A DNA stretch of 32,000 nucleotides from Sinorhizobium meliloti (GCF_017876815.1 NZ_JAGIOS010000002.1:540001-572000), one strand, 5' to 3'. Positions 10,103 to 30,210 are shown, counted from the stretch's first letter. Numbers and translations are program-made. Notes: generated by a model from the sequence alone, not told the origin.

Positions 10103-11251
10103 CTAAAAATCCGTCAGCAGCCGGCTCCAGGTCTCGGAGGCGAGGCCGCCGATATAGATGTCGTTGCGCTCTGCCGCTTCCTTGAGGTCCGCATGGCGGG
10201 TCACCATGCAGAAGTAGCCGCGGTGCCGGAATGACAGCCATCGCTGGCGCGAGATAGCGTTCATCAGGAATGGCTGTGCCATGCCGACCGCCACGGCATA
10301 GCCTTCCGCATCGAGCCGCGCGAACATCGCAGCGGCGACGTCGCGTTCGCGCCCCTCTTCGCAGACGAGATTGAGCACCGTGGCCACGGCACCTTGCTTG
10401 CCGAAAAAAAGAAAGGCGCCGATCGTGCGGCCGTCCGCGAGAACGACTTTCCTGCATTGGAGCGTCCCGAGGCTCCGGTTCATCGAAGCGACGCACACGA
10501 GCCAATCGAATTCGGCTCGCGACCAGGTCGGGCGGATCGCAAAGCGTTCCAGCATCGGGCTCGCGCATTGGAGGAACCCCTCGACGCCCGCTGCCTCGAT
10601 CCTGCATTCGCCCTCCGCCTTCGGCCGCATGGAGGGCCGCAACCGGCGCAGTGCACGGTCAACCAGCCTGAGAACGCCGACGACAACGCGCGAGCGCGCT
10701 ATCGGGAAGTGACTGGCCGCAAGGAAAGCCGCGGCGGTCAAGGGCAGAAACGAACGCTGCCATTCGAGGCTCTGGATCGGCAGGACGATGCCACCTCCCG
10801 CAACCCAATGGTCGGCGCTGACCGGCGACGCATTGTCGGAGAAGCACATGTCCTGGCGAGACGCCCGCATGGTGCGCGCAAGACGCGCCGCTCCAACGGC
10901 CCCTGCTTTACCATCCGCCATGAAGGCACAGAGAAGACGGGCCATGGTCGGGCGGCCATTGACCATGAACGCCATCGGTACCGCGAGTATTGCGCTGTCT
11001 ATGCCGGTCGCACCGTTTTCGTGCACGACGCTGCCGAGTTCGGGAGAATAGTGGGGGCTGCCGAAGAAGACGGTCTCGAGATAACGTCCAAGGTCATTCT
11101 CGGGCGCGTGGTCCTGCCTTCGGAAAATCCTGTTGAACAGCCGTCCGACCGCCGGAATGTCGCCGGGCGCCATGGCGCGTGTACCGCGGCGGTGCCCTGC
11201 ACCGACCGGCACACTCTCGGATACGCGAATTTCATCCGCCTCCATCGTCAT
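10103..11251 (-). CDS. Two-domain GNAT-like acyltransferase, unknown specificity (paralog A)
   Basis: This is the 3' part of the ORF 10103..12334. The ATG at 11251 overlaps the wzx stop (ATGA). It is homologous along its whole length to the product of 13506..14627 (GDIPAVGRLFNRIF vs EDIPAVARLFQKVF; SLEWQR vs SLDWIR; GGLASETWSRL vs NGLAGEHWSRL). Confidence 0.75.
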   Translation of the reverse strand: MTMEADEIRVSESVPVGAGHRRGTRAMAPGDIPAVGRLFNRIFRRQDHAPENDLGRYLETVFFGSPHYSPELGSVVHENGATGIDSAILAVPMAFMVNGRPTMARLLCAFMADGKAGAVGAARLARTMRASRQDMCFSDNASPVSADHWVAGGGIVLPIQSLEWQRSFLPLTAAAFLAASHFPIARSRVVVGVLRLVDRALRRLRPSMRPKAEGECRIEAAGVEGFLQCASPMLERFAIRPTWSRAEFDWLVCVASMNRSLGTLQCRKVVLADGRTIGAFLFFGKQGAVATVLNLVCEEGRERDVAAAMFARLDAEGYAVAVGMAQPFLMNAISRQRWLSFRHRGYFCMVTRHADLKEAAERNDIYIGGLASETWSRLLTDF

Positions 11252-12558
11252 ATGGCGCCCGCTCCAAAGGTGAGCGCAGCCTGGCGGCGGTCGCGCCGCA
11301 CGAAGTGCAGGAGCACGCTCCAAGAGGCGACCACCATCGCGATTTCGATTGCGTAGAAGGACAGGAAAGTTCCCATCGGCGGGGCGTACCAGCTTGCCCA
11401 TACGGCAAGGCCGGCGCCGGCGATGCTGCCGAGCCCCATGACGGTCGCGCGGGCGGCGTGTGCGCCGGAGGCACCAAGTGCCTCGACCGCGACCGACCAC
11501 ATCGCGAGCGGCACCACGACCCAGCATAGGATTCTGACGAAGCCGACCAACGAGAGATAGTCCTTGCCGAAAAGGTACGGCAGGACCGGTGCCAGAACGA
11601 AGACCGTGACGGCCGCAGCGAGGCTGATGACCGTGGCGGCAGCGAGCACCCGGCGTACGCGCTGCAGCGCCTGGTGAAGTCCCGCCGCCGTTGCCCTCGC
11701 CGAACCCGGGTAGATAAGCCGGTTTAGCGCTTCCACTGAAAGATAGCTGCTCTCCAGCATGCGGCGGGCGACACTGTAGCTCGCGACGACCTCGGCGGTG
11801 GTGACGAGGCTCAGGACAAGCAGGTCGGCATTCTGGCGGAGCGCGCGCAGGATGAATGGTATGCTGAAGTAAAGGCCTTGCGGGATTTCCTCCCGCACGA
11901 TGCGGTAGCGCGGCGTACCAAGTCCCCGGATTGCCCGCATACACAAGAGCGCCACGAGGACATGGCACAGAAACTGCCACACCGCCCAGTATGCGACGCT
12001 GGTGACGCCGAAGGCGATGCAGGCGAGTGCCGCCGCAACCGTCCTCGCGGCCGCAAAACCGACGACGACCTTGTTCGCGGAGGCAAAATCCGTATGAGCG
12101 ATATAGATCTGCTCGGTGAGCACGATGACCCGGACCAGCAGGATATTGGTGACGAGCATCAGCGTGATCACGGCGACATTCGTCACGGGGTCCGGCGAAA
12201 GGGTGAAGAAGAACGGCAGGACCACCGCTCCCAACAGGACCAGAGCTGCCCCGCTCGCCGCCGTCAGGATGACATTGTGTCCGAGCATCTGCGGATAGAT
12301 CGCGCGGTCGCGCGCGACCCGGCGCACCAGGCATTCCATCGCCCCGAGCCCACAGAGATGGACGGCTATGTTGGCGACTGCAGTAATTGCGACGAAAACG
12401 CTGAACTCGTGGACGCCGAGCCAGCGTGCAAGGATGGCAAAGGTAAGGAGTTGCGCCGCCGAACCGAGAACCAGACTGCCGCCAGAGGCGAGATAGGACA
12501 CGACCATCGGCAGGAATGGTCTGTCGCCGCGCTGTTCCGTCACACCTTCCGGGGCCAT
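11248..12558 (-). CDS. Wzx-type oligosaccharide flippase (MOP superfamily polysaccharide biosynthesis protein)
   Basis: It is polytopic (about 12 transmembrane helices). The N-terminal block GSAAQLLTFAILARWLGVHEFSVF is typical of Wzx. My preferred start is the ATG at 12558; the maximal ORF start is 12633. Confidence 0.8.
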   Translation of the reverse strand: MAPEGVTEQRGDRPFLPMVVSYLASGGSLVLGSAAQLLTFAILARWLGVHEFSVFVAITAVANIAVHLCGLGAMECLVRRVARDRAIYPQMLGHNVILTAASGAALVLLGAVVLPFFFTLSPDPVTNVAVITLMLVTNILLVRVIVLTEQIYIAHTDFASANKVVVGFAAARTVAAALACIAFGVTSVAYWAVWQFLCHVLVALLCMRAIRGLGTPRYRIVREEIPQGLYFSIPFILRALRQNADLLVLSLVTTAEVVASYSVARRMLESSYLSVEALNRLIYPGSARATAAGLHQALQRVRRVLAAATVISLAAAVTVFVLAPVLPYLFGKDYLSLVGFVRILCWVVVPLAMWSVAVEALGASGAHAARATVMGLGSIAGAGLAVWASWYAPPMGTFLSFYAIEIAMVVASWSVLLHFVRRDRRQAALTFGAGAI

Positions 12559-12774
12559 CCGTTCTGCCTTGACAATCCGACTAAGGGTCGGCACCGGGCT
12601 GCGACCTGCACCCTCGCCGATTGAGGCGCACACTAGCGAGGATAAGTGATTGGCCGGTTAACATAAGCTTTGTGACGCCATGTGTTATCGGACGCCCTCC
12701 ATTTCAGCTTCCGTTTACCTGCACGCGCTAGTGTGCGCCGGACGACATCCAATCCGATAACCGAAGGAGCCTTC

Positions 12775-13509
12775 GTGCTGCAGGGCGACAATCATCTTGA
12801 CGGCCGGACCGAGGGTCGCTCGCCGCGGCTCGTACGATTCATGGGCGTCGACCTCGAACTCGCACCGGACGTGCTCGTGCCGAGGGAGGAGACGGAACTC
12901 CTTGGGCGGAACGCCGCAGCGATCCTGACCGAGCGCGCCGGACCGGCGACCGTGATCGACATGTGCTGCGGATCCGGAAATCTCGCTCTGGGGATCGCCG
13001 AGGAGGTACCGCTTGCGCGTGTCTGGGGTGCCGACCTCACCGACAGCACGGTCGCGCTTGCGCGGCGCAACGTCGATCGCCTTTCGCTTGGCGACCGCGT
13101 CGTCATCCGGCAGGGCGACCTGTTCGCCGCCCTCGCCGGAGAAGACCTCGAGGGCGCCGTCGACATGATCGTCTGCAACCCGCCCTATATCTCGACATCC
13201 CGCCTCGAAGGCGACAGCGCGCATCTTCTCGCGAGCGAGCCGCGGGAGGCGTTCGATGGCGGCCCCTACGGCATATCCATCCATCAGCGGCTGATCCGCG
13301 AGGCCGTCGCCTTCCTCAAGCCGGGCGGCTGGCTCCTCTTCGAGTTCGGAGAGGGACAGGATCGCCAAGCCACGGCGCTTCTCGCCCGAACGAAGGCCTA
13401 TGAGGCAGTGACATTCGCGGAGGACTCGGCCGGAAAGCCGCGGGTCGCACTCGCGCGCAGGCTGGGAGGTGCAGCGGCAACCGCCGCGGCTGACGGGGCA
13501 AGCAGATGA
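12775..13509 (+). CDS. HemK/PrmC-like NPPY SAM-dependent methyltransferase lacking the N-terminal helical domain
   Basis: Motif I reads VIDMCCGSGNLALG and motif IV reads VCNPPYI. The blocks LVPREETELL and EPREAFDGGPYG are typical of PrmC. The GTG at 12775 is preceded by AAGGAG with a 5-nt spacer. The maximal ORF starts at 12682. Confidence 0.8.
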   Translation: MLQGDNHLDGRTEGRSPRLVRFMGVDLELAPDVLVPREETELLGRNAAAILTERAGPATVIDMCCGSGNLALGIAEEVPLARVWGADLTDSTVALARRNVDRLSLGDRVVIRQGDLFAALAGEDLEGAVDMIVCNPPYISTSRLEGDSAHLLASEPREAFDGGPYGISIHQRLIREAVAFLKPGGWLLFEFGEGQDRQATALLARTKAYEAVTFAEDSAGKPRVALARRLGGAAATAAADGASR

Positions 13510-14627
13510 GCGACATCCGTTCGCTCGCAGTCGAGGATATCCCGGCTGTCGCGCGGCTCTTCCAGAAGGTTTTCCGCAACAGCGCGGAGGAGCCGCCGCC
13601 TGCGTTCATCGAATATCTTCGGCAGCTCTATATCGATGCCCCGGGCAACGACCCGGAAATCCGCCCGCTCGTGTACAGCAACGATGACGGCCGGATTTCC
13701 GGCTTCGTCGGAGCGAACACTCTGGCCATGACGTATCGCGGCAGGCCATTGCGCGCCGCGATCTGCGGCTCGCTGATGGTCGAAGGCCACGAAAGCGATC
13801 CGATGGCCGGCGCGCGGCTGCTGAAAGCGTTCCTTGCAGGACCGCAGGACCTTTCCTTCAGCGAAACGGCGAGCGAAGTTTCGACGCAGATGTGGACGAA
13901 GCTGCGTGGCGTCGTGCTTCCGCAATACAGCCTCGACTGGATACGCGTCATCCGGCCCGCATCCTTCGGCCTCGATCTCGTCGCGAGCCGGTTCGGCCCC
14001 GCTCGCGCACTCGGCCCGCTGGCTCATGCGTTCGACCGCCGTCATCGCGGCAAGTTGCGACGCGGCGAGTTGCGCTGGTCGGGCGTGCCCGACGCCGCCA
14101 CCACACAGGGCCCGCTGCAGGTCGCCGACATCGACCGGCATGGCTTTGCCGAGCTCTTCGCACCCTTGACCCGGCAGTTTGCCGTGCAGCCGGCCTGGGC
14201 CGAGGGCCAGCTGGACCATATCCTCGAAGACGCGGAGAAGAAGCCGGAATTCGGCGCGCCGGTGCTTGCGGCCGTGAGGACGCGAAGTGGTGCTCCCGTC
14301 GGAGCGTTTTTCTACCACCTGCAGCCCGGCGGAACTGCCAGGGTTCTCCAGGTCCTCGCCCTGCCGGGACAGGCCGGTTCGATCCTCGACTGCCTGATAG
14401 AGCACGCGGCCGCGCGCCGCGCCGCTGCGGTTCGCGGTCGAACCCAGCCGGCGCTGCTTGAGGCCATGATGGGCCGCCGTATCGGCTTCGTCCATGCCGC
14501 CTCGACCGTCGTCCATTCCCGCGAGGAGGAACTCGTCGACGCCTTCCGTCATGCACAGGGTTTCATCAACGGGCTGGCGGGGGAACACTGGAGCCGGCTG
14601 ATCGGCGGGACTTTCAACCGGATCTAG
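13506..14627 (+). CDS. Two-domain GNAT-like acyltransferase, unknown specificity (paralog B)
   Basis: It is a 373-aa ORF. Its ATG overlaps the methyltransferase stop (ATGA at 13506-13509). It is a paralog of the product of 10103..11251. Confidence 0.75.
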   Translation: MSDIRSLAVEDIPAVARLFQKVFRNSAEEPPPAFIEYLRQLYIDAPGNDPEIRPLVYSNDDGRISGFVGANTLAMTYRGRPLRAAICGSLMVEGHESDPMAGARLLKAFLAGPQDLSFSETASEVSTQMWTKLRGVVLPQYSLDWIRVIRPASFGLDLVASRFGPARALGPLAHAFDRRHRGKLRRGELRWSGVPDAATTQGPLQVADIDRHGFAELFAPLTRQFAVQPAWAEGQLDHILEDAEKKPEFGAPVLAAVRTRSGAPVGAFFYHLQPGGTARVLQVLALPGQAGSILDCLIEHAAARRAAAVRGRTQPALLEAMMGRRIGFVHAASTVVHSREEELVDAFRHAQGFINGLAGEHWSRLIGGTFNRI

Positions 14628-14686
14628 AGCGCTTCCAGAAATGTGCATAGCGGTCTTGCGCCCGGGAATGCGTCGTTCGAAATGCA

Positions 14687-14839: not shown

Positions 14840-14880
14840 AATCAAGCAAACCGCGGCGGCTATCCGAATATCAACAGTCT

Positions 14881-15612: not shown

Positions 15613-15792
15613 CTCAAGCGAGTACGAAGAGGGAAACGGGGATCGCGTGTAGACGTGTAGCCGACTCGCGTGGATTGCCAAACTCACGGCCAATCACATA
15701 TTCGATATCTGCAACCCCGCGCGGAGGGGTCGTCGGAGATTTAGACGTGACGAAGTCGGTGGCCTGCCCAACTGGAGCGGGCTGAGGAGAAG

Positions 15793-15826
15793 AGGTCGAC
15801 TCGACCTAAGAGCATCGTGATCTAGG
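15793..15826. repeat. Palindrome plus cctaagagcatcgtgatctagg repeat copy
   Basis: The palindrome aggtcgactcgacct is followed by cctaagagcatcgtgatctagg. The same architecture occurs at 31692-31726. The repeat contains the TAG stop of the EAL gene (15822-15824). Confidence 0.65.
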
Positions 15827-16637: not shown

Positions 16638-16658
16638 CCGGCGACGCGCCTCGTTCGG

Positions 16659-17393: not shown

Positions 17394-17608
17394 GGGGGCC
17401 TCCTATCGAATGTCGCGGCCGTTGTTGCTCCGGCCGATTTTCTGCTTCAATTGATAAAGCGATAGCGTGCAACTGGCGCGGGTTCCACCGTCGCCGGACC
17501 AATGCGCCGGTTGATAGGACTTAGGTCCGTGGGCACGGTCGTCAAAAGTCCCAAGATGCGCTATGACCAAGGGGTAAGGGATGGCGCGCGTTGACCGGCC
17601 GGCCGGAG

Positions 17609-19737: not shown

Positions 19738-20185
19738 AGGACAGAAGCCGTCTCCGGTCGGCCGAGGTTGCGCGCCGGTTGACGATCGTGCGCCCGCGCG
19801 AATCCTTCATGATGTAGCGGGCGCCTTCGATCACCTCGCTGATGCCGTCCCGGTGACGTACGCGCAGGATGGAGCCGCCGCCTTCCACGGACGTCGCTGC
19901 TCTTCCGCTTGCCCGGCCGGAATTCGAATTGCCGCCGCCTTTGCCGTTCGAGCCACCGCCCCTGCCATTCCCGTTTCCGCCGCCGCCACCGTTTCCGCCG
20001 CCTCGTCCGCCGCCGCCTCCTCCGCCGCCACGTCCGCCGCCGCTACCGCCTCCCTTGGCGAGAGCGGACTGCGGTTCCAGTTCGATGCCTGAGCCCGACA
20101 GCGCGATTTTGTAAGGCGATACGGCGACGGGAAGGCCGACCGAAACCCAGCACAGTGCTGCGAGAAAGTTTCGACGCGTGACCAT
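19727..20185 (-). CDS. Exported glycine-rich protein with a twin-arginine-like signal, unknown function
   Basis: AGGAGG lies 6 nt upstream of the ATG at 20185. The N-terminus MVTRRNFLAALCWVSVGLPVAV has a T-R-R-x-F-L Tat motif. It is followed by AKGGGSGGGRGGGGGGGGRGGGNGGGGGNGNGRGGGSNGKGGG and a roughly 55-aa basic C-terminal domain. Its 3' end overlaps the response regulator 3' end by 11 bp. Confidence 0.7.
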   Translation of the reverse strand: MVTRRNFLAALCWVSVGLPVAVSPYKIALSGSGIELEPQSALAKGGGSGGGRGGGGGGGGRGGGNGGGGGNGNGRGGGSNGKGGGNSNSGRASGRAATSVEGGGSILRVRHRDGISEVIEGARYIMKDSRGRTIVNRRATSADRRRLLSFID

Positions 20186-20581
20186 CACGCTCCTCCTGAA
20201 GAGTTTTACCGGCCTGCGCCTGATCGCGGTCTCGCGAATGCATTGACGCTTTCACCGATCGTCGGCATCGCCGCCGACGCGACAACAGTCCACCGGGAAA
20301 GCCCAACATTCGCTTTCGCCAGCTGTTGCGCCATCTTTGTTCACGGTCTGGTCAGTGCGTCAACTGCAATCGAGGTGGTTCAGACGTTTCGCTTTCACGG
20401 GTCGGACGATCGTCCGATGCGATTCGGACCAAAGTCCGACGATGGGGCAAGGCGGCTAGGCGAAAGCGGCTCTGCAGCCTCTCGAATGAGAGGCTGCAGA
20501 AAAAAAAAGGTTATCGATCCAGTTGCCATTGCGCAACCTGCCGGGGCTCGGTGATGCTGCGGTCCGGCGACGCGGACCGGC

Positions 20582-20845
20582 TCAGGCCGCCCTCACGCCC
20601 GCCTTCATCGGGATCTCGATGTCGACTTCGAGCGTGGTGACGTGCTCGCCGCGTTCCATCGTGACGTTGACCTTGTCGCGGTCGACCTGGACATGCTTGG
20701 CGATGACGGCGAGAATTTCTTCCCGAAGCACCGCCACGAGATCCGACTGGCCGACCGACGCGCGCTCATGCGCCAGCAGCACCTGCAGGCGCTCGCGCGC
20801 CGTCGGCGCCGAGGTCTGCTTGCTGAAGAAACGGAAAATGCTCAT
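20582..20845 (-). CDS. minE: Cell division topological specificity factor MinE
   Basis: The sequence [29 protein letters not shown] is a canonical MinE N-terminus. It is ATGA-coupled to minD. Confidence 0.95.
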
Positions 20846-21657
20846 GCTGCCCTCCGTCCGAATATCTTGCCCAGGAAGCCACGCTTCTCGCCGGGAATGG
20901 TCATCGGTACCGTTTCTCCCGCGAGGCGGCGCGCAGCATCCAGATAGGCACGCGCCGGAGCGCTGCTGCTGTCGGCGAGCGTCACCGGGGCACCGAGATT
21001 GGAAGCCTTGAGAACGTCCATGCTCTCGGGAACGATGCCGATGAGCGGGATGGAGAGTATCTCGAGGACGTCATCGACCTTGAGCATGTCGCCACGCTCG
21101 GCACGGACGGCATCGTAGCGTGTCAGCAGCAGGTGCTTCTCGACCCGCTCTCCGCGCTCTGCCCTTTCGGTCTTGGCATCGAGCAGGCCGATGATGCGGT
21201 CGGAGTCGCGAACGGAGGAGACTTCCGGATTGGTGACGATGACGGCGAGGTCGGCGTGGCGCATCGCGAGCGTCGCGCCGCGCTCTATCCCGGCCGGGCT
21301 GTCGCAAATGATCCAGTCGAAGTGTTTCCTGAGTTCTTCCATCACCCGCTCGACGCCCTCGGGGGTCAGGCTGTCCTTGTCGCGGGTCTGCGATGCCGGC
21401 AGCAGGAACAGGGTATCGAGGCGTTTGTCGCGGATCAGCGCCTGCGGCAGCTTCGCGTCGCCCTGGATCACGTTGACGAGGTCGTAGACGACCCGGCGCT
21501 CGGCGCCCATGACGAGGTCGAGATTGCGCAGCCCGACGTCGAAATCGACGACGACCGTTTTCTCGTTGCGCTGCGCCAGCGCCGCACCCAGTGCGGCGGT
21601 TGACGTCGTCTTGCCGACGCCGCCCTTTCCAGATGTAACTACAACTACTTTCGCCAT
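20842..21657 (-). CDS. minD: Septum site-determining ATPase MinD
   Basis: [24 protein letters not shown] shows the deviant Walker A motif. It is 271 aa from the ATG at 21657. The longer ORF extending to 21786 reads through an intergenic repeat and is rejected. Confidence 0.95.
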
Positions 21658-21676
21658 CTTCCCGCTCCTGTTGTCA

Positions 21677-21727
21677 GAGCGGGATGAGGAAAACTGTGAG
21701 CGGTTTTCCGCCCGCATCCCCGCTCTA
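21677..21727. repeat. 51-nt hairpin repeat in the minC-minD spacer
   Basis: The sequence is agagcgggatgaggaaaactgtgagcggttttccgcccgcatccccgctct. By hand alignment it is 45/51 identical to 31610-31660. The differences in the stem preserve base pairing. Confidence 0.8.
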
Positions 21728-21754
21728 ATCCGATAAATCCCGCCGGCAACCGGC

Positions 21755-22504
21755 TCAGTTAAGTCTTTCCGCCATGATCGAATCACCTTCCAGCCAGAGC
21801 TGGACCGACTGGCCGCGCAGATTGGGCGCCATGTCCTCGGCCGTCTTGTAGACGCCGTCGATTGCCAGCAATTCCGCTTCGAGCCGGCGGCAGAAAATGC
21901 GCGCAGACGCGTTTCCGACCGAGCCTGCCAGCGCCCGCCCTCGGAGCGTCCCGTAGATATGGACCGAACCTCCTGCGACGATCTCCGCGCCGGATGCGAC
22001 AGAGCCGACCACCGTCACGTCGCCTTCCGGGAAGATGACCGACTGTCCGGACCGAACCGGTTCCCGGACGATGATCGATGCCGTCGCCCGCACCGGCTGA
22101 ACCTCCTCCGGCGTAATCGGCGCAGCGGCCTTTCCCTTGCCGGCCTTCGGCGGATCGGCAGGATCGGCCTCAGGCACCTCGAAATCGGGCGCCGGCCGGC
22201 CGCCCTTCATGGCAGGCGGCATTCCCGGTTCGAAGAGCGAGGGACGTCCGCCTTCGATCCCCATCACCCTGACATTGCGCTGGCCGAGCTCGTCGAGCAG
22301 GCTCTTCAACTGTTTCCGGTCGATCTCGAGATCCGCCACGTCGAGCACCACCGGGCGCCCCAGGAAGAAGCCCGCCGAACGCGAAGCGAGGTCATCGAGC
22401 CGGCCAAGCCACCAGTCGAGCGGCAGTTCCGGGGAAAGCACCAGCGCCAGGAAGGAGCGGCCCTTGATGCGGATCGAGCGAGCGTCTGTTAGCACTTTGG
22501 TCAT
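21755..22504 (-). CDS. minC: Septum site-determining protein MinC
   Basis: The N-terminus reads IRIKGRSFLALVLSPE. The C-terminal beta-helix block reads SGQSVIFPEGDVTVVGSVASGAEIVAGGSVHIYGTLRGRALAG. Its position upstream of minDE supports the call. Confidence 0.93.
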   Translation of the reverse strand: MTKVLTDARSIRIKGRSFLALVLSPELPLDWWLGRLDDLASRSAGFFLGRPVVLDVADLEIDRKQLKSLLDELGQRNVRVMGIEGGRPSLFEPGMPPAMKGGRPAPDFEVPEADPADPPKAGKGKAAAPITPEEVQPVRATASIIVREPVRSGQSVIFPEGDVTVVGSVASGAEIVAGGSVHIYGTLRGRALAGSVGNASARIFCRRLEAELLAIDGVYKTAEDMAPNLRGQSVQLWLEGDSIMAERLN

Positions 22505-22741
22505 CTTCGTTAATTATTGGTTGCCAAGATGTAGGCGAGCCATGGTTAACAAATGGTTAACCGGGCCTCCTTCTTTGCCTGATCTTCGGTCCGTTTCGCC
22601 TCCGCATGACGTGGAGATTTCCGTGACGTGCGAGACCATCTGTCCGCAAAGAGACCCGACGGAACCGGCGACCAGTTCTAGGCAGCATGGTGACGATGGG
22701 AGCTTGCACAGGGCTGACGGCTGGGGGGAAGAGGGGCATCA

Positions 22742-22778
22742 AAAAGGGGAGAGGAAGTTTCGGTTCCTCTCTCCTTTT
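22742..22778. terminator. Bidirectional intrinsic terminator-like hairpin downstream of the DUF1127 gene
   Basis: The stem aaaaggggagaggaa (22742-22756) pairs with ttcctctctcctttt (22764-22778), giving 15 bp with one G-U pair and a 7-nt loop. A/T tracts on both sides give a U-run on either strand. Confidence 0.65.
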
Positions 22779-22800
22779 GCAGCAGGCCGACCACTGCAGG

Positions 22801-23052
22801 TCAATCCGGGCGCCCTGCCTTAGCCTGAATGAAGGCGCCTATGTCCCAGATGGGGACTTCCTCCTCCGCCTCCGGAAGGCCGATGTCTCGGCGCATCCGA
22901 TTCGACAGATGGGTGATCTGGTTTTGCGCCTGACGGCGCCTCCAGGCGGCCGACATCAGCGCGCGTGCGGTCTTCCAGACGCCGAATTTCCGGTAAAGTT
23001 CATCGACCGTCGCCGCGAGGGGTTCGACAACTAAAGCTTGTGGTTCACGCAT
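22801..23052 (-). CDS. DUF1127 domain small protein
   Basis: It is 83 aa. WRRRQAQNQITHLSNRMRRDIGLPE matches the DUF1127 signature (W-R-R..L..LS..L-x-DIGL). Confidence 0.8.
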   Translation of the reverse strand: MREPQALVVEPLAATVDELYRKFGVWKTARALMSAAWRRRQAQNQITHLSNRMRRDIGLPEAEEEVPIWDIGAFIQAKAGRPD

Positions 23053-23211
23053 GACTGTCCGTCCCGGCGCAGTGACGCAGCCAGGTCCTTTCGAGGATCA
23101 GAGACGTGCGGATGCGGAACGCAAAAATGCGAACAATCGCCCCGTCATCCGGTCACGTCAGGTAAAAAGGGGATCGCCAAATGGCGGAATTGCGGGCTTG
23201 TGAGCCTTGGA

Positions 23212-23301
23212 TCAGTAGCGGCTGAAACCAGATGCGCTACGCATCGAAGGCGTGATAGCCGTTCCGCCGCAGAGGCGCACAAACACGAGATTGGAATCCA
23301 T
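23212..23301 (-). CDS. Candidate 29-aa small ORF
   Basis: GGAGG lies 6 nt upstream of the ATG at 23301. The ORF translates to MDSNLVFVRLCGGTAITPSMRSASGFSRY*. It is below the size cut-off of the ORF track and has no recognisable homology. Confidence 0.3.
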   Translation of the reverse strand: MDSNLVFVRLCGGTAITPSMRSASGFSRY

Positions 23302-23491
23302 CTTACGCCTCCTCTGATTTGAATTGCGGATGAGGTGATCCTTGCACGAGACCGGCCGATCGGCAAGTACTCAATTTCGAATTGCAGCCACCGAACGATT
23401 TCCGTTGCAGGAAAGCAACACTTTCCGATTGGAAGGCCGATCTCCGCCGCGAAGGCTCACATCGATCGAGCGGCCGTGAGCGGCCCGCCGA

Positions 23492-24535
23492 TCACCGCCC
23501 GCCGGCGGGTCGATCCACGCCGGTCGGTCCGCTGCGGAGAAGCGCATCGATCTCCGCCATTATTGCCGCCGGCAATGGCCCCAGCTGCATCGCCGCGAGA
23601 TTCTCCCGGACCTGCGCCTCCGACTTGAAACCGGGTATGGGGAGGGTGCTGGGCGAACGGGCGAGAAGCCAACCCAGCGCGCCTTGAGCCAAGGTTCTGC
23701 CGCCCGTCTGGAGAAGCTCTCTGAGCTCTTCAAGGCGCCGGAGATAGTCGGCACGCGGCCGTCCGTCCTCGAAGAACCGCACCCAACTGTGACCGGCCGC
23801 GCGCACGTCGTCGTCAGGCAGGCGCGTGTCAGGATTGAACTTGCCAGTCAGAAATCCCATCGCCGATGGCGACCGATTCAGGCTCGCAAGATCGGTGCTC
23901 TCGCACATCGCCAGCATATCGGGCCCGTTCGTGAAGACGTTGAGCTCCTGCTGAACCGCGACGAAATGCGGAAACTTCACCATCCGCTTCGCGCCGGCGG
24001 CGTTGTCCGTGCTCCAGCCCCAGAAACGGATGGCACCTGTCTCAGCGAGCTTTTCAAGTGTCTCGCCGGCAGCATCCGCCTGATCGTGCGACAGTTCGCC
24101 GACATGTATCTGATCGAGGTCGATATGGCCGGTGCCCAAACGCTGGAGCGACGCCGTGCAGGCCTGCTCGATATAGGAAGGGCTGACATCCGTGCCGATC
24201 AGGGCACGTTTGGCACGGTCGTAGGTATATCCGAACTTGGTTGCGACGATTGCCTCGCCTCGTCGCCCCTTGAGGGCTCGGCCAATGACCTCCTCGCTAT
24301 GACCGGCTCCATAAGCGTCGGCGGTGTCGATCAGCGATGCACCCATGTCGAGCCCGACATGGATTGCTCGGATCGACTGTTCGTCATCGACCTCTCCCCA
24401 GCCGTCCGCCTTCCCGTCGAGGGTGAAGAAGCCTCCGATCGCCCAACAGCCGAGGCCGATCGATCCGGCGGAGAGGCCGGAGCGACCCAATGGTCTGTGC
24501 CCGATCGCTGATACGTCGCTGGCAAGCATGATCAT
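23492..24535 (-). CDS. Aldo/keto reductase
   Basis: The ATG at 24535 is preceded by AAGGGAAG. The blocks LGRSGLSAGSIGLGCWAIGG, IDTADAYGAGHSEEVIG and VATKFG are typical of AKRs. The maximal ORF runs to 24646. Confidence 0.88.
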   Translation of the reverse strand: MIMLASDVSAIGHRPLGRSGLSAGSIGLGCWAIGGFFTLDGKADGWGEVDDEQSIRAIHVGLDMGASLIDTADAYGAGHSEEVIGRALKGRRGEAIVATKFGYTYDRAKRALIGTDVSPSYIEQACTASLQRLGTGHIDLDQIHVGELSHDQADAAGETLEKLAETGAIRFWGWSTDNAAGAKRMVKFPHFVAVQQELNVFTNGPDMLAMCESTDLASLNRSPSAMGFLTGKFNPDTRLPDDDVRAAGHSWVRFFEDGRPRADYLRRLEELRELLQTGGRTLAQGALGWLLARSPSTLPIPGFKSEAQVRENLAAMQLGPLPAAIMAEIDALLRSGPTGVDRPAGGR

Positions 24536-24825
24536 TCTTCCCTTTGTGGAACGATGCTCGCGCACTATGTCACCGCCCAAACGGCGCCCGGAAGTTCCGA
24601 TTCTGCAGGGTGTTTTTCGCCGATGAAAAATCGGCCGGTGCGGCAATCCGGCCTCGGCAGCGCATCGAACCGGCAGAAAAGACAGTCAATTCAGCTGGTA
24701 TGTTATTGCTTGGCGAGACTCATGTTACGCTAACGGCGCATCTCCGGTTGAACGCATGGCGGCCGCTTCTCTACTCGCCGTCGTGCAGTCAATCGAAGAT
24801 GATCGTCAGCAGCGGAGAAAACACC

Positions 24826-25005
24826 ATGAACCGCAACGTTATCATTGGCATTATCGTGCTCGCGATTATCATTCTCGCGGTCATATTCTTCATGCCAGGG
24901 ACGGCTGAAACGCCCCCGGCGACTGAAACAACTCCCCCGGCGACGACGGAGCCCGCGCCCACAGAACCGGCACCGGCACCGACGACACCTGCGCCCTCTC
25001 AATAA
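24826..25005 (+). CDS. 59-aa single-pass membrane microprotein with a Pro/Thr-rich tail
   Basis: GGAGA lies 8 nt upstream of the ATG. The sequence is MNRNVIIGIIVLAIIILAVIFFMPG followed by TAETPPATETTPPATTEPAPTEPAPAPTTPAPSQ. A strong hairpin follows the gene. Confidence 0.55.
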   Translation: MNRNVIIGIIVLAIIILAVIFFMPGTAETPPATETTPPATTEPAPTEPAPAPTTPAPSQ

Positions 25006-25011
25006 AGCCGG

Positions 25012-25051
25012 CCGATCGCACGCCCCGTTCAGAGACGGGGCGTGCGATCGG
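25012..25051. terminator. Perfect 17-bp hairpin between convergent genes
   Basis: The arm ccgatcgcacgccccgt (25012-25028) pairs with acggggcgtgcgatcgg (25035-25051) around the loop tcagag. It lies 6 nt after the microprotein stop and 4 nt after the NadE-like stop. No clear U-tract is present. Confidence 0.6.
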
Positions 25052-25055
25052 ATCC

Positions 25056-26060
25056 TTACTCGATCTCCTCGACCGGCTGCACCAGCTGCGGCCCGAGATG
25101 CAGGTAGCGCGTCGCCTTGCGCTTGGCGGCAATGTCGGCCCAGACGCGCTCGACCTGAGCCACGCCTAGATTCGCCGCGCGTCCGACCTCGTCGGCACTG
25201 AGTCCGTTGTTGAGGCCGAAGAGGCAGAGGTCCATGCGGTCATAAGGCAGGGAGAAATAGAACTCCTCCTGCGTCTGCTCGAGCGAATAGGTGTCTGTGG
25301 TCGGCGGCCGCCGCCGGATTTCCTCGGGAATGCCGAGATGTCCGGCGAGCGCATAGACCTGCGACTTGTAAAGATGGGCGATCGGTTTGACGTCTGCCGC
25401 GCCATCGCCATTCTTGACGAAGAAGCCTTGGTCGTATTCCAGCCTGTTCGGCGTGCCGAGCACGGCGAAGTTCAGCCGGTCGGCATGGTAATATTCGATC
25501 TGCTTGCGGGTGCGCTGCTTCATATTCGTCGCGGCTACGATGCCGAGATAGACGGAAGGCGGCATGCGCAGCTTCGTCTGTTTGCCTTCGGGGTCCTGCA
25601 CCACGAGCGAGGAAATGTTGTAGCCGTCGCCTTCGAGCGCATTGGCGATGACGATCTTCGACGCCCAGCCCGGGCCGTAATCGGGGACGAGTTCGCGAAT
25701 GAAGGCATCGCGCCGCTGATAGCAGCCCATGGCATCGAGCGTCGGTCCGATGTCCTCGACCACCGCCTCGACACCGAACGTCTCGGCGACCAGCCGGCCG
25801 AGGCGCAGGCTTTCCGGGTCGGAATCGTTCTCCGGCATGAAGAGGCAGAAGACATTCTTCGCACCGACGGCGCGCACGGCCAGTGCGACCGAGACGCTCG
25901 AATCGATGCCGCCGGAAAGGCCGAGTACGAGGCCGCGTTTGCGCAGGCTGCGCAACTGGCCCCGCAATCCGGCGACGATTCGGTCGGCCTCCGCAGCTTC
26001 GTCGATTTTCAGCGTGTCGGCCGAGAAGACGAGCCTGTTCTGGTCCGGTCGGATATTCAT
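25056..26060 (-). CDS. Short NadE-family PP-loop ATP pyrophosphatase (NAD synthetase-like amidating enzyme)
   Basis: LVLGLSGGIDSSVSVALA shows the SGGxDS PP-loop. The C-terminal block reads GDGAADVKPIAHLYKSQVYALAGHLGIPEEI..PPTTD..EQTQEEFYFSLPYDRMD. The ATG at 26060 overlaps the ligase stop (ATGA). There is no nitrilase-type glutaminase domain. The maximal ORF runs to 26183. Confidence 0.8.
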   Translation of the reverse strand: MNIRPDQNRLVFSADTLKIDEAAEADRIVAGLRGQLRSLRKRGLVLGLSGGIDSSVSVALAVRAVGAKNVFCLFMPENDSDPESLRLGRLVAETFGVEAVVEDIGPTLDAMGCYQRRDAFIRELVPDYGPGWASKIVIANALEGDGYNISSLVVQDPEGKQTKLRMPPSVYLGIVAATNMKQRTRKQIEYYHADRLNFAVLGTPNRLEYDQGFFVKNGDGAADVKPIAHLYKSQVYALAGHLGIPEEIRRRPPTTDTYSLEQTQEEFYFSLPYDRMDLCLFGLNNGLSADEVGRAANLGVAQVERVWADIAAKRKATRYLHLGPQLVQPVEEIE

Positions 26061-27604
26061 TCTGCGGGCTCCAATGTTTCGGCCGCAAGGCGGCGGCTGA
26101 CTTTTCCTGTATCCGTCTTCGGCAATTCGGTGCGGAACTCGACGATCTTCGGCACCATGAAATCCTCGAGATGGCGGCTGCAATGACGGATAATGTCCTT
26201 CTCCGTCAGCGTCGGGTCCGACAACACGACGAGAGCGCCGATCGCGGCCCCAAGCACCGGATCGGGAACACCGATGACCACGGCCTCGGCAATTCCCGGA
26301 TGCGCATGCAGCACGGTCTCGACCTCCTTGGGCGCCACCTTTTCGCCGCGCGTCTTGATGATGTCGTCCTTGCGGCCGACGAAATAGAGGAAACCCTCCT
26401 CGTCGGTACGGAACAGGTCACCGGTGTGAAGCACCTTTTCCCAGGGGTTGGGGCCGGGGCGGAGCATGCGCTCGGTCGCGGCGTCGTTGCGCCAGTAGCC
26501 CTGCATCACATGCGGGCCGCGAATGACCAGTTCGCCGGGTACACCGGGCGGTACCCGGTTTCCCTCGTCATCGACCACGAAGGCTTCGGTATTCGGTATC
26601 GCGATCCCGACGGAACCCGGGCGCCGGTCGAGCTCTTCCGGCGGCAGATAGGTGCAGCGCTTGCATTCCGTCAGTCCGTACATGGAATAGAGCCGGGCGC
26701 CCGGGAAAAGCTCCCTCAGGCGGGCGATATGCGCCGGCGGCAGTGCTGCCGCGGTGTTGGAGAGATAACGAAGGCTCGGCAGGAAGCCGGGTTCGAGGTC
26801 ACGCATCTGCAGGATCATCGCCGCCATGGTCGGCACCAGCGGGAAACCGGTAACCCTTTCGGTCCGGATGCGGTCGAAGATCGCCTGCGGGAAGGCGAAT
26901 GACTTTTCGAGCACGAGCGTCGCGCCGAGCCGGATCGCCATCAGCAGCTGATAGAGCCCGTAGTCGAAGGCGAGCGGCAGCACGTTCAGGATGATGTCGT
27001 CAGGCGTGTTGCGGAGATAGGTGGTGATCGACTCCGAGGCCGCATCGATATTGCGATGCGTCATCATCACGCCCTTGGGACGGCCGGTCGAGCCGGAGGT
27101 ATAGATCAGCATGCCGAGGTCGACGTCGATGCCGCCGTGGCGGACGGGGGCGGGTGCAGCCGTCAGGCATTCCTCGAAGGAAGCGGCACCGTCCGGGATG
27201 CGGCCGCCCGGCGCGGCGGTCGAGGCGACGAATGGCGCATGGCCGGGAGCAAGCGCCAGCGCCTCGGCAACGACCGGCATCAGCTTGGCCTGCGTCAGGA
27301 TAGCCGCCGCCTCGCAATCGGCGACGATATAGGCAAGCTTGTCCGCCTTGGTCGAAGCATTGATCGGGCTGAAGGTCGCTCCGGCCTTCAGGATCGCGAA
27401 GATCGCGGCGGCCGCCTCCCAGCAATTGTCCATGAAGACCAGAACCCGATCGTTCCGCTTCACGCCGTTTTCGGCAAGAGCGGCGGCGAGGCGGGTCGAA
27501 AGATCGTCGAGTTCGGCATAGCCGAGCCGCCGGCGACCGGTGACCAGCGCCGTCTTTGCCCCGTTGGCCGCGGCGTTCCTGATGAGGAATTGCTCGAACC
27601 GCAT
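26057..27604 (-). CDS. ANL-superfamily adenylating enzyme (acyl-CoA / acyl-carrier-protein ligase)
   Basis: The AMP-binding core is LIYTSGSTGRPKGVMMTHRN. It also shows GELVIRGPHVMQGYW and GDLFRTDEEGFLYFVGRKDDIIKTRGEKVAPKEVE. Confidence 0.92.
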   Translation of the reverse strand: MRFEQFLIRNAAANGAKTALVTGRRRLGYAELDDLSTRLAAALAENGVKRNDRVLVFMDNCWEAAAAIFAILKAGATFSPINASTKADKLAYIVADCEAAAILTQAKLMPVVAEALALAPGHAPFVASTAAPGGRIPDGAASFEECLTAAPAPVRHGGIDVDLGMLIYTSGSTGRPKGVMMTHRNIDAASESITTYLRNTPDDIILNVLPLAFDYGLYQLLMAIRLGATLVLEKSFAFPQAIFDRIRTERVTGFPLVPTMAAMILQMRDLEPGFLPSLRYLSNTAAALPPAHIARLRELFPGARLYSMYGLTECKRCTYLPPEELDRRPGSVGIAIPNTEAFVVDDEGNRVPPGVPGELVIRGPHVMQGYWRNDAATERMLRPGPNPWEKVLHTGDLFRTDEEGFLYFVGRKDDIIKTRGEKVAPKEVETVLHAHPGIAEAVVIGVPDPVLGAAIGALVVLSDPTLTEKDIIRHCSRHLEDFMVPKIVEFRTELPKTDTGKVSRRLAAETLEPAE

Positions 27605-27631
27605 GATGGTGATGCCCCCGCCCTTCGCCGC

Positions 27632-27898
27632 TTACGCCGAGACCGGCACGGCGGCTTTCGCTTCGATGAAAGCCGAAATCCGCGCGAGCGAGTCGAGATT
27701 TTGCGGGACGATGTCGGCATCGGCCATCACGATCCCGAAATCGTCTTCGATGAAGGCCACCAGTTCCAGAACGCCGGTCGAATCGATGATGTCGTTCTCG
27801 ATCAGCGAAGCGTCGTCCGCGAGTTCGTATGCGCTGTCGCCGAAGAGAAAGTTCTCGATGACGAATGCCTTGACCTTGTCCTTAATCGCTTGGGTCAT
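27632..27898 (-). CDS. Acyl/peptidyl carrier protein
   Basis: It is 88 aa and acidic. The phosphopantetheine attachment block is NDIIDSTGVLELVAFIEDDFG. AAGGA lies 7 nt upstream of the ATG. Confidence 0.85.
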   Translation of the reverse strand: MTQAIKDKVKAFVIENFLFGDSAYELADDASLIENDIIDSTGVLELVAFIEDDFGIVMADADIVPQNLDSLARISAFIEAKAAVPVSA

Positions 27899-27924
27899 TC
27901 CACTATCCTTTTTTCCAACGGTTT

Positions 27925-29862
27925 TTACGCGGCCTCAGCCTTGCGAAGGCTGGTGCCGGTGAATGTCTGCAGCCAGAGTTGCGTCGACAGGACGCCGACG
28001 AAGGCCGCGTTGTCGCGAAAGCCCGAGGCGGGGCGCGACTGGCATTTCTCGTAGAGTTTCGTTACCGCTTTGGCGTTGAAGAGCCCGCCGGCGGCGACCG
28101 CGTCCTCGCTCATGGCGGAGCGCACATAATCGAGTTCGCCCGCGCCGCTGAAGGAGTGGCTGTCCGGAGCGCGATAGGGCTGCTTCGTCCGCCGGCCGAT
28201 CGCCGGCGGCAGCAGGTCTTTCGTCGCCTCGCGCAGGATATGCTTCTCGACGAGCCCTCTGAGTTTCATTTCCGGCGGCAGCTTTGCGGCGAATTCGACG
28301 AGGCGGTGGTCGAGGAACGGGAAACGGCCCTCGATCCCATGCGCCATCGCCATGCGGTCGCCCTGGCTCGAGAGAATATATCCGGGCAGCAGGAAGCGGC
28401 TTTCGAGATATTGGGCCTGATGCAGCGGATGCCAGCGGCCGAAGGCGGCGGGGAGCCGGCTGACCAATTCTTCCGCCGCATCATAGCCCTTGAGTTCGGC
28501 GCGCAGGTCCGAGGAGAAGAACATCTTGGTTGCCGCCGTGCCCTTGAGGCGTGGCCGATGCGAAAAGAGCGGGTCGTCGAGGGCCACGTCGCCGGCGCCG
28601 AAAAAGGCGGCGAGATACTCGGCCGACTGCTGCTGCAGGCCTGGCAGATAGGGGTAAAGCTTGCGGAACAGATGCGGCCTGATCCGCGAGCCGGGTTGCC
28701 GGCCGCAGAAACGGCGGACGCGCGCTTCCTTGAAGATATCGTAACCGGCGAAAACCTCGTCGGCGCCCTCGCCCGTCAGCACTACTTTCAGACCCGCCTC
28801 GCGCACCAGGCCGGACAATTTGTAGAGCGGCGCGGGCGCAGTGCGGATGATCGGCTTCTCGGTAAAGCGGATGACATCGGGAAAGTCCCTGGCGATGTCG
28901 CCGGCGCGGCATGCGGCCGCGCGGTGTTCGGTTCCGAGCGCCGCTGCCATCTCCTCCTGGAATGCGCTTTCGTCATGCTCCGCGCTATCGAAGGTGACGG
29001 AGAAGGTGCGCAAGCCTTGGGACGTCATCCCGGCCGCCAGCGCCGAGATGATGGACGAATCGAGGCCTCCGGAAAGATAGGCGCCGACGGGCACATCGGC
29101 CCGCATGCGGATCCGCGTCGCGTCCGTCAGGAGCGCGCGCAATTCCTCCGCAGCGCGGCTTTCCTCCGCATAGGCTGGGCGCTCGTCCCGGTCCGGATAG
29201 TCGAGCTGCCAATAGGGCCTTGTCGTGGTGCCGTTCTGATCGGCGATCATCAGATGCCCGGGCTCGAGCTCGTGGATGTCGCGGAAGGGCGTACGCGGCG
29301 CGATCGGCGCCCATAGGGTGAATATCTGGTCGAGCGCGATCGGGTCGATCTCTGCGGAGACACCCGGAACTTCGAGGAGCGCCTTGACCTCGGATGCGAA
29401 ATAGAGCGTGCCGCCTTTCAAAGTGTGGAAGAGTGGGCGCACACCCATGCGGTCGCGCGCGAGCATCATCCGGCGCCGGCGTGCGTCCCAGATCGCGAAG
29501 GCGAAATCGCCGTTGAGGAGAGAGAGACAGTCCTCGCCCATCTCTTCGTAAAGATGGAGGATTACCTCCGTATCGCTGGAGGTGCGGAACCGGCGGCCTC
29601 TGGCGCGCAGTTCGTCGCGCAACTCCACATAGTTGAAGATTTCGCCATTGAAGGCGATCGTCAGCTCGCCGCTCGGGTCGGACATCGGCTGCTGGCCGTC
29701 CCCGAGCCCCACAATCGACAGCCGAACATGACCGAGGCCCGCACCCGGCGCGGTGAAGATCCCACGCTCGTCCGGGCCGCGGTGGCCGATCGCGGCCGTC
29801 ATCCTTTCGAGAAGGGGCTTACCGTCCCGTATTGAACCAAGGTACCCGCCGAATCCGCACAT
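27925..29862 (-). CDS. Asparagine synthase (glutamine-hydrolysing) family amidotransferase
   Basis: MCGFGGY gives the N-terminal nucleophile Cys2. It also shows NGEIFNY and VGAYLSGGLDSSIISALAA (PP-loop). The product is 645 aa. Confidence 0.92.
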   Translation of the reverse strand: MCGFGGYLGSIRDGKPLLERMTAAIGHRGPDERGIFTAPGAGLGHVRLSIVGLGDGQQPMSDPSGELTIAFNGEIFNYVELRDELRARGRRFRTSSDTEVILHLYEEMGEDCLSLLNGDFAFAIWDARRRRMMLARDRMGVRPLFHTLKGGTLYFASEVKALLEVPGVSAEIDPIALDQIFTLWAPIAPRTPFRDIHELEPGHLMIADQNGTTTRPYWQLDYPDRDERPAYAEESRAAEELRALLTDATRIRMRADVPVGAYLSGGLDSSIISALAAGMTSQGLRTFSVTFDSAEHDESAFQEEMAAALGTEHRAAACRAGDIARDFPDVIRFTEKPIIRTAPAPLYKLSGLVREAGLKVVLTGEGADEVFAGYDIFKEARVRRFCGRQPGSRIRPHLFRKLYPYLPGLQQQSAEYLAAFFGAGDVALDDPLFSHRPRLKGTAATKMFFSSDLRAELKGYDAAEELVSRLPAAFGRWHPLHQAQYLESRFLLPGYILSSQGDRMAMAHGIEGRFPFLDHRLVEFAAKLPPEMKLRGLVEKHILREATKDLLPPAIGRRTKQPYRAPDSHSFSGAGELDYVRSAMSEDAVAAGGLFNAKAVTKLYEKCQSRPASGFRDNAAFVGVLSTQLWLQTFTGTSLRKAEAA

Positions 29863-29879
29863 GCCTATTCGCTCTCACG

Positions 29880-30210
29880 CCCGCAATGACACCCTAAATA
29901 TAGCCTGAATACCGGCGAGAATAGTTAATCAGCGGAGCTTTTTTCAATAATGGTAAATTGTCTTTCTTGGCCTCAATAATAATCGCAGCATCCTTGCGCC
30001 GCTTAATATTCGTATTTACTTTGATACGTTTTTACACTTATTTTACTAAAATTGGATCGGCGGACAAATCTTGCAGTCTTAACAGATCGATAACGGGACC
30101 GCGCGCCGACAGGTTCTTTCACACTGCAGGACTCGAGGTGTGGAACCGCGTAGTTTCCATTTTGTTAAGAAAAAGCGTCCAATCTTAACGTTTGAGCTGC
30201 ACATCTCGGA
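29880..30210. promoter_or_regulatory. AT-rich intergenic tract upstream of the asnB-like operon
   Basis: By my hand count, 29941-30060 is about one third G+C, against more than 60% in the flanking genes. On the minus strand there is a CTATAT hexamer (29903-29898), which matches the rhizobial -10 consensus, about 35 nt upstream of the asnB-like ATG. I saw no matching -35 element. Confidence 0.4.

Follow-up and report, generated by a model that had tools for sequence, protein, structure and literature searches.

What two amidating enzymes packed around a small carrier protein and a ligase could be making is the question raised by positions 25,056 to 29,862 of a 32,000-nucleotide stretch of Sinorhizobium meliloti DNA (the window; GCF_017876815.1, NZ_JAGIOS010000002.1:540001-572000). 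Four minus strand open reading frames (ORFs) follow each other here in the direction of transcription. These encode an AsnB-like protein of 645 amino acids (27925..29862) with an MCGF start, a Cys2 nucleophile and an SGGLDSS PP-loop; a carrier protein of 88 amino acids, SMb20651 (27632..27898), with its serine in IIDSTG; an ANL-family ligase of 515 amino acids, SMb20650 (26057..27604), which contains the YTSGSTGRPKGV motif and is the probable loader of the carrier protein; and a NadE-like protein, NadE1 (25056..26060), of 334 amino acids counted from the ATG, which has LSGGIDSS and no glutaminase domain. The intergenic gaps are 26 nt and 27 nt, and the last two genes overlap in an ATGA (TCAT on the plus strand) at 26057-26060. 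All of this is present in the sequence as the initial annotation had described it, as are the 17-bp hairpin and the AT-rich leader that flank the operon.

Our proposal is that the operon is one half of a split, carrier-dependent tailoring cassette, which would amidate, and sometimes N-methylate, a small acid and transfer it to an amine of a glycan. We put the probability of this overall logic at about 0.55, and that of each chemical detail much lower. The parts that are new are the coupling of a NadE-like enzyme to a carrier system, the tandem-GNAT and HemK-type partners, the contiguity with a glycan locus in relatives and the amino acid or dicarboxylate-like character of the ligase.

The operon itself is not new. 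The window is S. meliloti pSymB and the operon is asnB-smb20651-smb20650-nadE1: several S. meliloti strains have a pSymB that matches the 5-kb stretch at 100% identity, strain 1021 is among the 99-100% matches, and the arrangement is kept in about 45 S. meliloti pSymB records at 99-100% identity. It neighbours minCDE, and public annotation labels the AsnB-like and NadE-like genes asparagine synthase and NAD(+) synthase. The initial annotation treated the operon as an orphan, which does not hold, since it was published in 2009 with biochemical verification of the acyl carrier protein (ACP; Ramos-Vega et al. 2009, Microbiology 155:257, PMID 19118366). According to the summary of that work in PMC7232532, a later paper of the same group, smb20650 is co-transcribed with the ACP gene smb20651, SMb20651 is a bona fide ACP that AcpS phosphopantetheinylates to holo-SMb20651, and acylated SMb20651 arises when SMb20650 is co-expressed in E. 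coli. The same source reports that smb20650 cannot stand in for fadD in mutants of S. meliloti or E. coli, with neither rescue of growth on oleate nor clearing of free fatty acids. In 2017 the function of the operon was still described as needing investigation (PMC5686131), and a 2025 paper on a minimal pSymB does not mention its genes. Our literature searches found no product assigned to the cassette and no link between it and exosortase systems. The original description reportedly left the function open while proposing a role with fatty acids and, as far as could be checked, drew no connection between it and the polysaccharide locus, or between it and the tandem-GNAT and HemK-like genes discussed below. 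The literature already has the operon, but apparently not a conserved, glycan-linked cassette of six components in which a NadE paralogue is linked to a carrier.

A carrier-protein cassette with a NadE relative

We compared the surroundings of the NadE-like gene in other genomes. We scanned the GTDB representative set, one genome per species, with the NadE-like protein as the query and found a close relative encoded by at least 591 species. Locus counts refer to the best 80 loci, at 60% identity or more, and neighbor counts to the 67 loci flanked by 6 kb or more on each side. The best 80 loci span the Alphaproteobacteria, Nitrospirota, Planctomycetota, Elusimicrobiota, Verrucomicrobiota, Acidobacteriota, Myxococcota, Gemmatimonadota and Actinomycetota. 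The ACP gene is next to the NadE-like gene in 66 of the 67 loci, the ligase gene in 64 and the AsnB-like gene in 61, with all four together in 59. Nine gene arrangements occur among these loci, the commonest being AsnB-ACP-LIG-NADE (49) and NADE-AsnB-LIG-ACP (6). One contig labelled Bacillus subtilis strain SK6B4 (JAHREI010000008.1, locus L029) has the full cassette at 62-72% identity, values which track those of two Brucellaceae contigs (L030 and L031); this assembly is probably contaminated or mislabelled.

Fusions also tie the NadE-like protein to the carrier machinery. A ligase~NadE-like fusion of 849 amino acids has 3 members from 3 samples and lies in an operon ordered AsnB-ACP-fusion-tandem-GNAT. 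A representative library built at 50% identity, in which we counted 404 NadE-like relatives at E-values up to 1e-30, also holds a fusion of the NadE-like protein to an AcpS-type phosphopantetheinyl transferase (PPTase). On two contigs (L089 and L090) a NadE-like domain is followed by an AMP-binding C-terminal subdomain, in which the A10 Lys has become Asn, and a peptidyl carrier protein (PCP). The initial view that the four genes, including the NadE-like one, form one functional unit is well supported by this synteny in 59-66 of 67 loci, by the shuffled gene orders and by the fusions. Judged from these comparisons, the NadE-like gene belongs to the carrier cassette and is not a stray NAD synthetase. 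Additionally, nadE1 is not the essential NAD synthetase of the cell, since pSymB can be lost completely after relocation of engA and tRNA-Arg (PMC4207669). With the gene syntenic with or fused to the cassette, and with pSymB dispensable, neither a lack of synteny nor a housekeeping role was found.

Several other long ORFs were discarded as fusions. Those at L068 (827 amino acids), L062 (483 amino acids), L069 and L063 have Arg/Pro-rich shadow-frame N-termini, and P0364 has a junk C-terminus. The L089 and L090 metagenome contigs have the appearance of a mini-cluster like those of nonribosomal peptide synthetases (NRPSs), with the NadE-like domain in the position of the adenylation core. The neighbors of the fusion there are an A-PCP didomain, a GDSL protein, two alpha/beta hydrolases and an Sfp-type PPTase, and a 730 amino acid protein without a family match is found upstream.

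The protein families named in the initial annotation were recovered by the profile searches that it called for, namely GATase_7 and Asn_synthase, AMP-binding and NAD_synthase, with the carrier found by sub-cut-off ACP models only. For the NadE-like protein the match to NAD_synthase (PF02540) has an E-value of 3e-48. It scores 532 against the subfamily model NF002048 (PRK00876, cut-off 313) and 144 against the domain model TIGR00552 (cut-off 64), but fails the equivalogs for ammonia-dependent NadE, with 166 against NF010587 (cut-off 255) and 91 against NF001979 (cut-off 250). Its AlphaFold2 (AF2) model has the NadE fold, with a TM-score to the target of 0.82-0.88, and the top Foldseek hits are all NadE or nicotinamide mononucleotide (NMN) synthetase. 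The model carries a three-stranded beta insertion of about 55 residues which is not in any solved NadE. When aligned with E. coli NadE the core residues E208, K216, D219, D223, K232 and T254 are kept, along with N179, R183, Y190, F213/F214 and K313/R314. Three positions are changed: the Tyr32-equivalent (Q35; Y, Q or I across the family), T169 (V215) and the His of EHKR (A312). From B. subtilis work we take these Tyr32-, T169- and His257-equivalents to be positions that touch nicotinic acid adenine dinucleotide. The likeness to NadE, and to the NMN synthetase variant of Francisella, is therefore one of fold, PP-loop and most of the catalytic core, and presumably of chemistry, in which a carboxylate would be adenylated and the adenylate then displaced by nitrogen. 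The differences are the insertion, the three changed positions, the equivalog scores below cut-off and a gene that is dispensable and linked, sometimes fused, to carrier-protein machinery.

The AsnB-like protein has the features of a class II glutamine amidotransferase (N-terminal Cys, GATase_7 and Asn_synthase domains, PP-loop). At least 70 of 73 orthologues share its MCG start, with Cys2 and the PP-loop conserved. It reaches 508 bits against TIGR01536 (cut-off 267) and stays below the AsnB equivalog NF006949, which represents enzymes with free aspartate as the substrate (332, cut-off 499). The model for NAGGN synthesis, TIGR03104, is third best, and the best match in the PDB is the hydroxyamidotransferase 7ylz. 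Identity to E. coli AsnB is 33%, with an insertion of about 55 amino acids and a changed segment after the GEG motif, so that the roles of individual residues are not reliably assignable from this alignment. The carrier protein has no Pfam hit at 1e-3, PP-binding included, and all of the NCBIfam ACP models that it matches score below their cut-offs, yet its DS[TMA][GA] motif is kept in 78 of 78 orthologues. The best of these models, "ACP for OlsHI" (57, cut-off 130), was set aside as it belongs to an unrelated, GH3-dependent ornithine-lipid pathway of planctomycetes.

The ligase contains AMP-binding and AMP-binding_C domains, and its closest relatives have a bearing on the cargo. It scores 457 against TIGR03098 (cut-off 592) and 292.6 against the NRPS A-domain model TIGR01733, just under the cut-off of 317.4, with the FadD equivalog models all far below theirs. 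Among its PDB matches NRPS A domains come first, with LgrA at 6e-90 and 3wvn, deposited as "non-ribosomal peptide synthetase", at 1e-76; oxalate-CoA ligase and malonyl-CoA synthetase are next, all ahead of the fatty-acid ligases FadD5 and FadD13. We take 3wvn to be VinN, a 3-methylaspartate:ACP ligase. At the sequence level the ligase thus resembles enzymes that adenylate amino acids or dicarboxylates, and not fatty-acid ligases.

Its pocket gives some further indications. The A4-like motif reads AFDYGLYQ, Arg316 directly after YGLTE is kept in 74 of 75 orthologues, and the A10 Lys (K501) in 75 of 75. Asp214, at the amino-binding position of A domains, is kept in 52 of 75. A second pocket type (loci L002, L004, L041, L053, L056, L057, L068 and L076) lacks both this residue and Lys315; it has D214G, Y218T, T284A, K315(L/I/V) and C317A and retains Arg316. 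The Neorhizobium-type loci without AsnB are all of this second type. These co-varying pockets suggest two substrate classes within the cassette family. A Stachelhaus-type code was also tried; its register after YGxTE is ambiguous by two residues relative to LgrA, and for that reason we call no substrate.

Partners and the polysaccharide locus

The operon has further partners in the same window. The initial annotation had pointed to two GNAT-like genes at 10-14.6 kb as candidates, and their orthologues do abut the operon in relatives. Tandem-GNAT acyltransferase 1 (13506..14627, plus strand, 373 amino acids, annotated as hypothetical) adjoins the cassette in 46 of 67 loci. Sequence searches against the PDB and NCBIfam gave no hits for it and Pfam only a weak GNAT match (Acetyltransf_9, 17.7 bits), so that the predicted fold alone is informative. 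Its AF2 model (pLDDT 87.9) retrieves N-myristoyltransferases, Eis and 2hv2 in Foldseek, at E-values of about 1e-13 and TM-scores of 0.5-0.57, and as modelled the fold resembles N-acyltransferases that act on amines. A distant counterpart at locus L091 matches Acetyltransf_9 and Acetyltransf_17. Tandem-GNAT acyltransferase 2 (10103..11251, minus strand, 382 amino acids) is 30% identical to the first (E 3e-45) and is ATGA-coupled to a Wzx-type flippase gene (11248..12558, minus strand; Polysacc_synt, annotated as a lipopolysaccharide biosynthesis protein). A GNAT 2 paralogue follows wzx in relatives too.

A third partner, overlooked in the initial annotation, is a HemK-family N-methyltransferase (12682..13509, plus strand) with an NPPY motif (IVCNPPYIS), whose gene overlaps the start of tandem-GNAT 1. 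It scores 151.6 against TIGR00536 (cut-off 115.5) and 179 against the PrmC equivalog (cut-off 199). The match starts only at profile position 54-79, leaving the N-terminal release-factor-binding part unmatched. It is thus a member of the family, but probably not PrmC. A HemK-like gene is present at the cassette in 25 of 67 loci, and lies inside the operon in Rhodocyclaceae, Myxococcota and Gammaproteobacteria.

The significance of these positions becomes apparent when the window is compared with related genomes. In S. psoraleae, Ensifer, Bosea, Chelativorans and Pararhizobium the genes are contiguous: asnB-acp-lig-nadE, then GNAT1 and HemK pointing back towards it, then wzx, GNAT2, wzz, wzy, the NodB-type deacetylase, GT4 and onwards pointing away. 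In the S. meliloti window the same genes are found at 0.1-14.6 kb, split from the operon by a block of about 10.4 kb (14628-25055). Besides wzx and the GNAT genes they include, by Pfam and all on the minus strand, a GT2 glycosyltransferase (99-1292), two GT4 glycosyltransferases (1557-2813 and 3073-4302), a NodB-type polysaccharide deacetylase (4313-5068), a Wzy_C polymerase/ligase (5061-6392) and a Wzz/GNVR co-polymerase (6405-8021). The separating block contains genes for an L,D-transpeptidase, an EAL protein, a hypothetical protein, a histidine kinase with its response regulator, MinCDE, a DUF1127 protein and an aldo/keto reductase. In S. fredii NGR234 the halves are interrupted by minCDE alone, to which S. 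medicae and S. meliloti add the two-component system, the EAL protein and the L,D-transpeptidase; the shorter insert of NGR234 suggests a stepwise insertion. By gene order in relatives, the polysaccharide locus at 0.1-14.6 kb and the operon are two halves of one ancestral cluster, a connection that the initial annotation missed. Its broader reading of a unit with GNAT partners and, most likely, a glycan target is supported; its orphan status is not.

Within the polysaccharide locus, 8022-10102 holds a DHDPS-family gene (8337-9245) and a plasmid-stabilization gene between wzz and tandem-GNAT 2. It would be a second small insertion, given that wzz and tandem-GNAT 2 are adjacent in relatives.

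Glycan genes accompany the cassette in other phyla as well, where its neighbors include an initiating sugar transferase (Bac_transf), GT4s, WecG, a hexapeptide acyltransferase and a GDSL protein. At one locus, in Ca. Manganitrophus (L066), an XrtW exosortase follows the cassette; it is the only locus in which we saw this. Exosortases are of interest since the initial annotation compared the operon to the accessory set of exosortase A (XrtA) loci, judging it similar but distinct, and this comparison bears up. The XrtA/PEP-CTERM models TIGR03098 and TIGR03108 are the best-scoring specific models for the ligase and the AsnB-like protein (448 against TIGR03108, cut-off 817), and those exopolysaccharide loci have the same combination of ligase, carrier and AsnB-type amidotransferase. 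However, when we scored the S. meliloti cassette together with members from three other lineages, all were below the cut-offs (ligase 362-464 against 592, AsnB 367-487 against 817). There is no exosortase in the 32-kb S. meliloti window, and the one at L066 is XrtW and not XrtA. As no cassette ligase or AsnB reaches the cut-offs, we regard the cassette as a sister of the exosortase-A set, whose genes are its nearest relatives by sequence, and not a member of it. To our knowledge the described XrtA set, which is itself biochemically uncharacterized, includes no NadE-like, tandem-GNAT or HemK-like partner.

In its proposed logic the cassette would be analogous to several better known systems. 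In DltA/DltC (D-alanylation), AlmE/AlmF/AlmG (glycine on lipid A) and butirosin BtrI/BtrJ/BtrK/BtrH (AHBA side chain, assembled on an ACP and passed to a sugar amine), a free-standing adenylating enzyme charges a separate carrier with a small acid, tailoring on the carrier is optional and a transferase passes the product to a cell-surface or sugar acceptor. The parallel would be a carrier-built acid moved to a surface polymer or a sugar amine; there is no sequence-level membership of the cassette in any of them. The transferases also differ, being MBOAT/DltB, the LpxL-like AlmG and BtrH in place of a tandem GNAT, and we know of no AsnB- or NadE-type amidation or HemK-type methyltransferase in these systems. 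What distinguishes the cassette is its pair of amidating enzymes with a PP-loop, of which one is a paralogue recruited from NadE, together with the tandem-GNAT and often a HemK-type methyltransferase.

How the cassette could work, and the alternatives

The gene content suggests a sequence of steps. The parts with their motifs and folds, the synteny, the fusions and the function of the ACP are established, whereas the identity of the acid, amidation on the carrier, the target of methylation and the acceptor are inferred. SMb20650 would adenylate a small polar acid, probably amino- or dicarboxylic, and thioesterify it onto the phosphopantetheine of SMb20651. The AsnB-like enzyme could then use glutamine, by way of Cys2, to turn one or more free carboxylates of the carrier-tethered unit into carboxamides. 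NadE1, as an ammonia-type PP-loop adenylating enzyme (or one using another nitrogen nucleophile), might perform the same amidation or form another amide, and in loci that carry it the HemK-type NPPY methyltransferase might N-methylate the amide nitrogen. The tandem-GNAT (13506-14627, or its paralogue at 10103-11251) would move the finished acyl unit from the carrier thioester to an amine, most likely that of an amino sugar freed by the NodB-type deacetylase of the locus. The repeat unit would then be flipped by Wzx, polymerized by Wzy and controlled in length by Wzz. A glycan is the most likely target of the cassette.

A more far-reaching version can be offered tentatively, and we would sooner doubt it than rely on it. 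This clade of the NadE family may have left NAD synthesis, either to amidate a carrier-tethered carboxylate or to form a bond with a carrier-bound unit by way of an acyl-adenylate; the latter option is hinted at by the NadE-like~A-subdomain~PCP fusion, since the NadE-like domain there replaces the adenylation core. Together with AsnB, HemK and the tandem-GNAT it could, in hundreds of species of many phyla, give Wzx/Wzy or exosortase-linked polysaccharides an acyl decoration with an (N-methyl)carboxamide that is so far undescribed.

Several observations count against the tailoring proposal. Asp214 of the ligase co-varies with Lys315 and is not universal, and so may be structural rather than amino-binding. 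Some loci lack AsnB (the Neorhizobium type) or the ligase, and a few (L003, L004, L089) have no obvious glycan genes. The 80 loci are not independent samples, because they are the closest relatives of one query. We know of no S. meliloti polysaccharide with such a group and no product has been seen, although the polysaccharide locus may be silent in the laboratory. The substrate of one of the amidating enzymes could instead be a nucleotide sugar or a uronic acid within the polymer. Finally, C12:0 and C18:0 acyl forms of SMb20651 were reportedly seen in E. coli in the 2009 study, which would point to fatty acids rather than a small polar acid.

This last point is at the center of the working idea of the original authors, in which SMb20650 is a C12-C18 acyl-ACP synthetase, the tandem-GNAT N-acylates a lipid, glycolipid or sugar amine with a long chain, and the amidating enzymes modify the acceptor. 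The acylation of SMb20651 on co-expression in E. coli fits this idea, as do the best Foldseek matches of the tandem-GNAT, which are myristoyl-CoA:protein N-myristoyltransferases. However, a TM-score of 0.5 to those enzymes reflects only a generic tandem-GNAT fold, and the cargo may have been picked up adventitiously in E. coli. Among solved structures the ligase is nearer to A domains and small-dicarboxylate ligases than to FadD5 and FadD13, and its pocket is polar with an invariant Arg. The failure to rescue fadD mutants on oleate (PMC7232532) is also unfavorable, though that test reads CoA formation and not ACP loading. Given these results we consider a fatty-acyl cargo unlikely, while still the best of the alternatives. 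The cassette could also belong to a small-molecule pathway that makes a diffusible amide serving as osmolyte, signal or siderophore-like compound, in the manner of the NAGGN produced by Ngg/AsnO, with the polysaccharide linkage being incidental. AsnB relatives do amidate small molecules, the NAGGN model ranks third for this one, and there are cassettes without nearby glycan genes: L003 is among insertion sequence elements, L004 is beside a Tn7-like element and L089/L090 are NRPS-like. We find this improbable when at most loci, in several phyla, the cassette lies within a Wzx/Wzy, glycosyltransferase or exosortase cluster, when the S. meliloti set has no thioesterase or condensation enzyme, and when the conserved partner is an N-acyltransferase with a sugar deacetylase in the locus.

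It is harder still to credit that the operon is a chance grouping of an ordinary ammonia-dependent NadE and an ordinary AsnB with an unrelated ligase and ACP. The broad models TIGR00552 and TIGR01536 are passed, public annotation names the two enzymes accordingly, and most core residues of E. coli NadE are kept. But synteny across phyla in shuffled orders and the fusions to ligase, PPTase and PCP run counter to coincidence, the failed equivalogs (NF010587, NF001979 and NF006949) and the insertion absent from all solved NadEs run counter to ordinary enzymes, and the cell can do without the entire replicon after engA and tRNA-Arg have been relocated.

If the tailoring proposal is right, it gives a testable function to an operon left open since 2009 and to one of the two unassigned ACPs of a model rhizobium. 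It would also re-label genes automatically annotated as "NAD(+) synthase", "asparagine synthase" and "long-chain acyl-CoA ligase" in at least 591 species, or 404 clusters in the 50% identity library. The decoration to which it points, on a surface polysaccharide, would be relevant to symbiosis, biofilms and antigenicity. Amidation linked to a carrier protein would be a new type of reaction for the PP-loop NadE family, and the HemK family might gain a non-protein substrate. The same reading suggests what the exosortase-A accessory set may do.

Flanks of the operon

The operon is bounded downstream by a perfect hairpin (25012..25051), a probable terminator that begins 4 nt past the stop codon of the NadE-like gene. 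Its arms (25012-25028 and 25035-25051) pair over 17 bp with 100% complementarity around a 6-nt loop. This inverted repeat and the three tight junctions are far beyond chance. On the other side of the hairpin a small convergent ORF (24610-25005, plus strand) codes for a membrane protein with a single pass and a tail rich in Pro, Thr, Ala and Glu (…TPPATETTPPATTEPAPTEPAPAPTTPAPSQ), and the hairpin is likely a bidirectional terminator common to this ORF and nadE1.

Upstream of asnB lies an AT-rich leader or promoter region of 333 nt (29863..30195, minus strand), with a GC content of 0.43 compared to 0.63 for the window and a minimum of 0.31 in a 100-nt stretch. As a scan of the whole window with Rfam gave no family above threshold, we read this leader as one without a riboswitch. 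It contains an exact CTATAT, the -10 consensus of S. meliloti, at 29898-29903 on the minus strand, 36 nt before the asnB ATG; no good -35 for this box was found upstream of asnB. A second element, the AATTTACCAT box (29950-29959, minus strand), does not vary among S. meliloti, S. medicae, S. fredii and S. psoraleae, where its AT-rich surroundings diverge. A conserved box together with a -10 that lacks a good -35 hints at a promoter controlled by an activator or a repressor.

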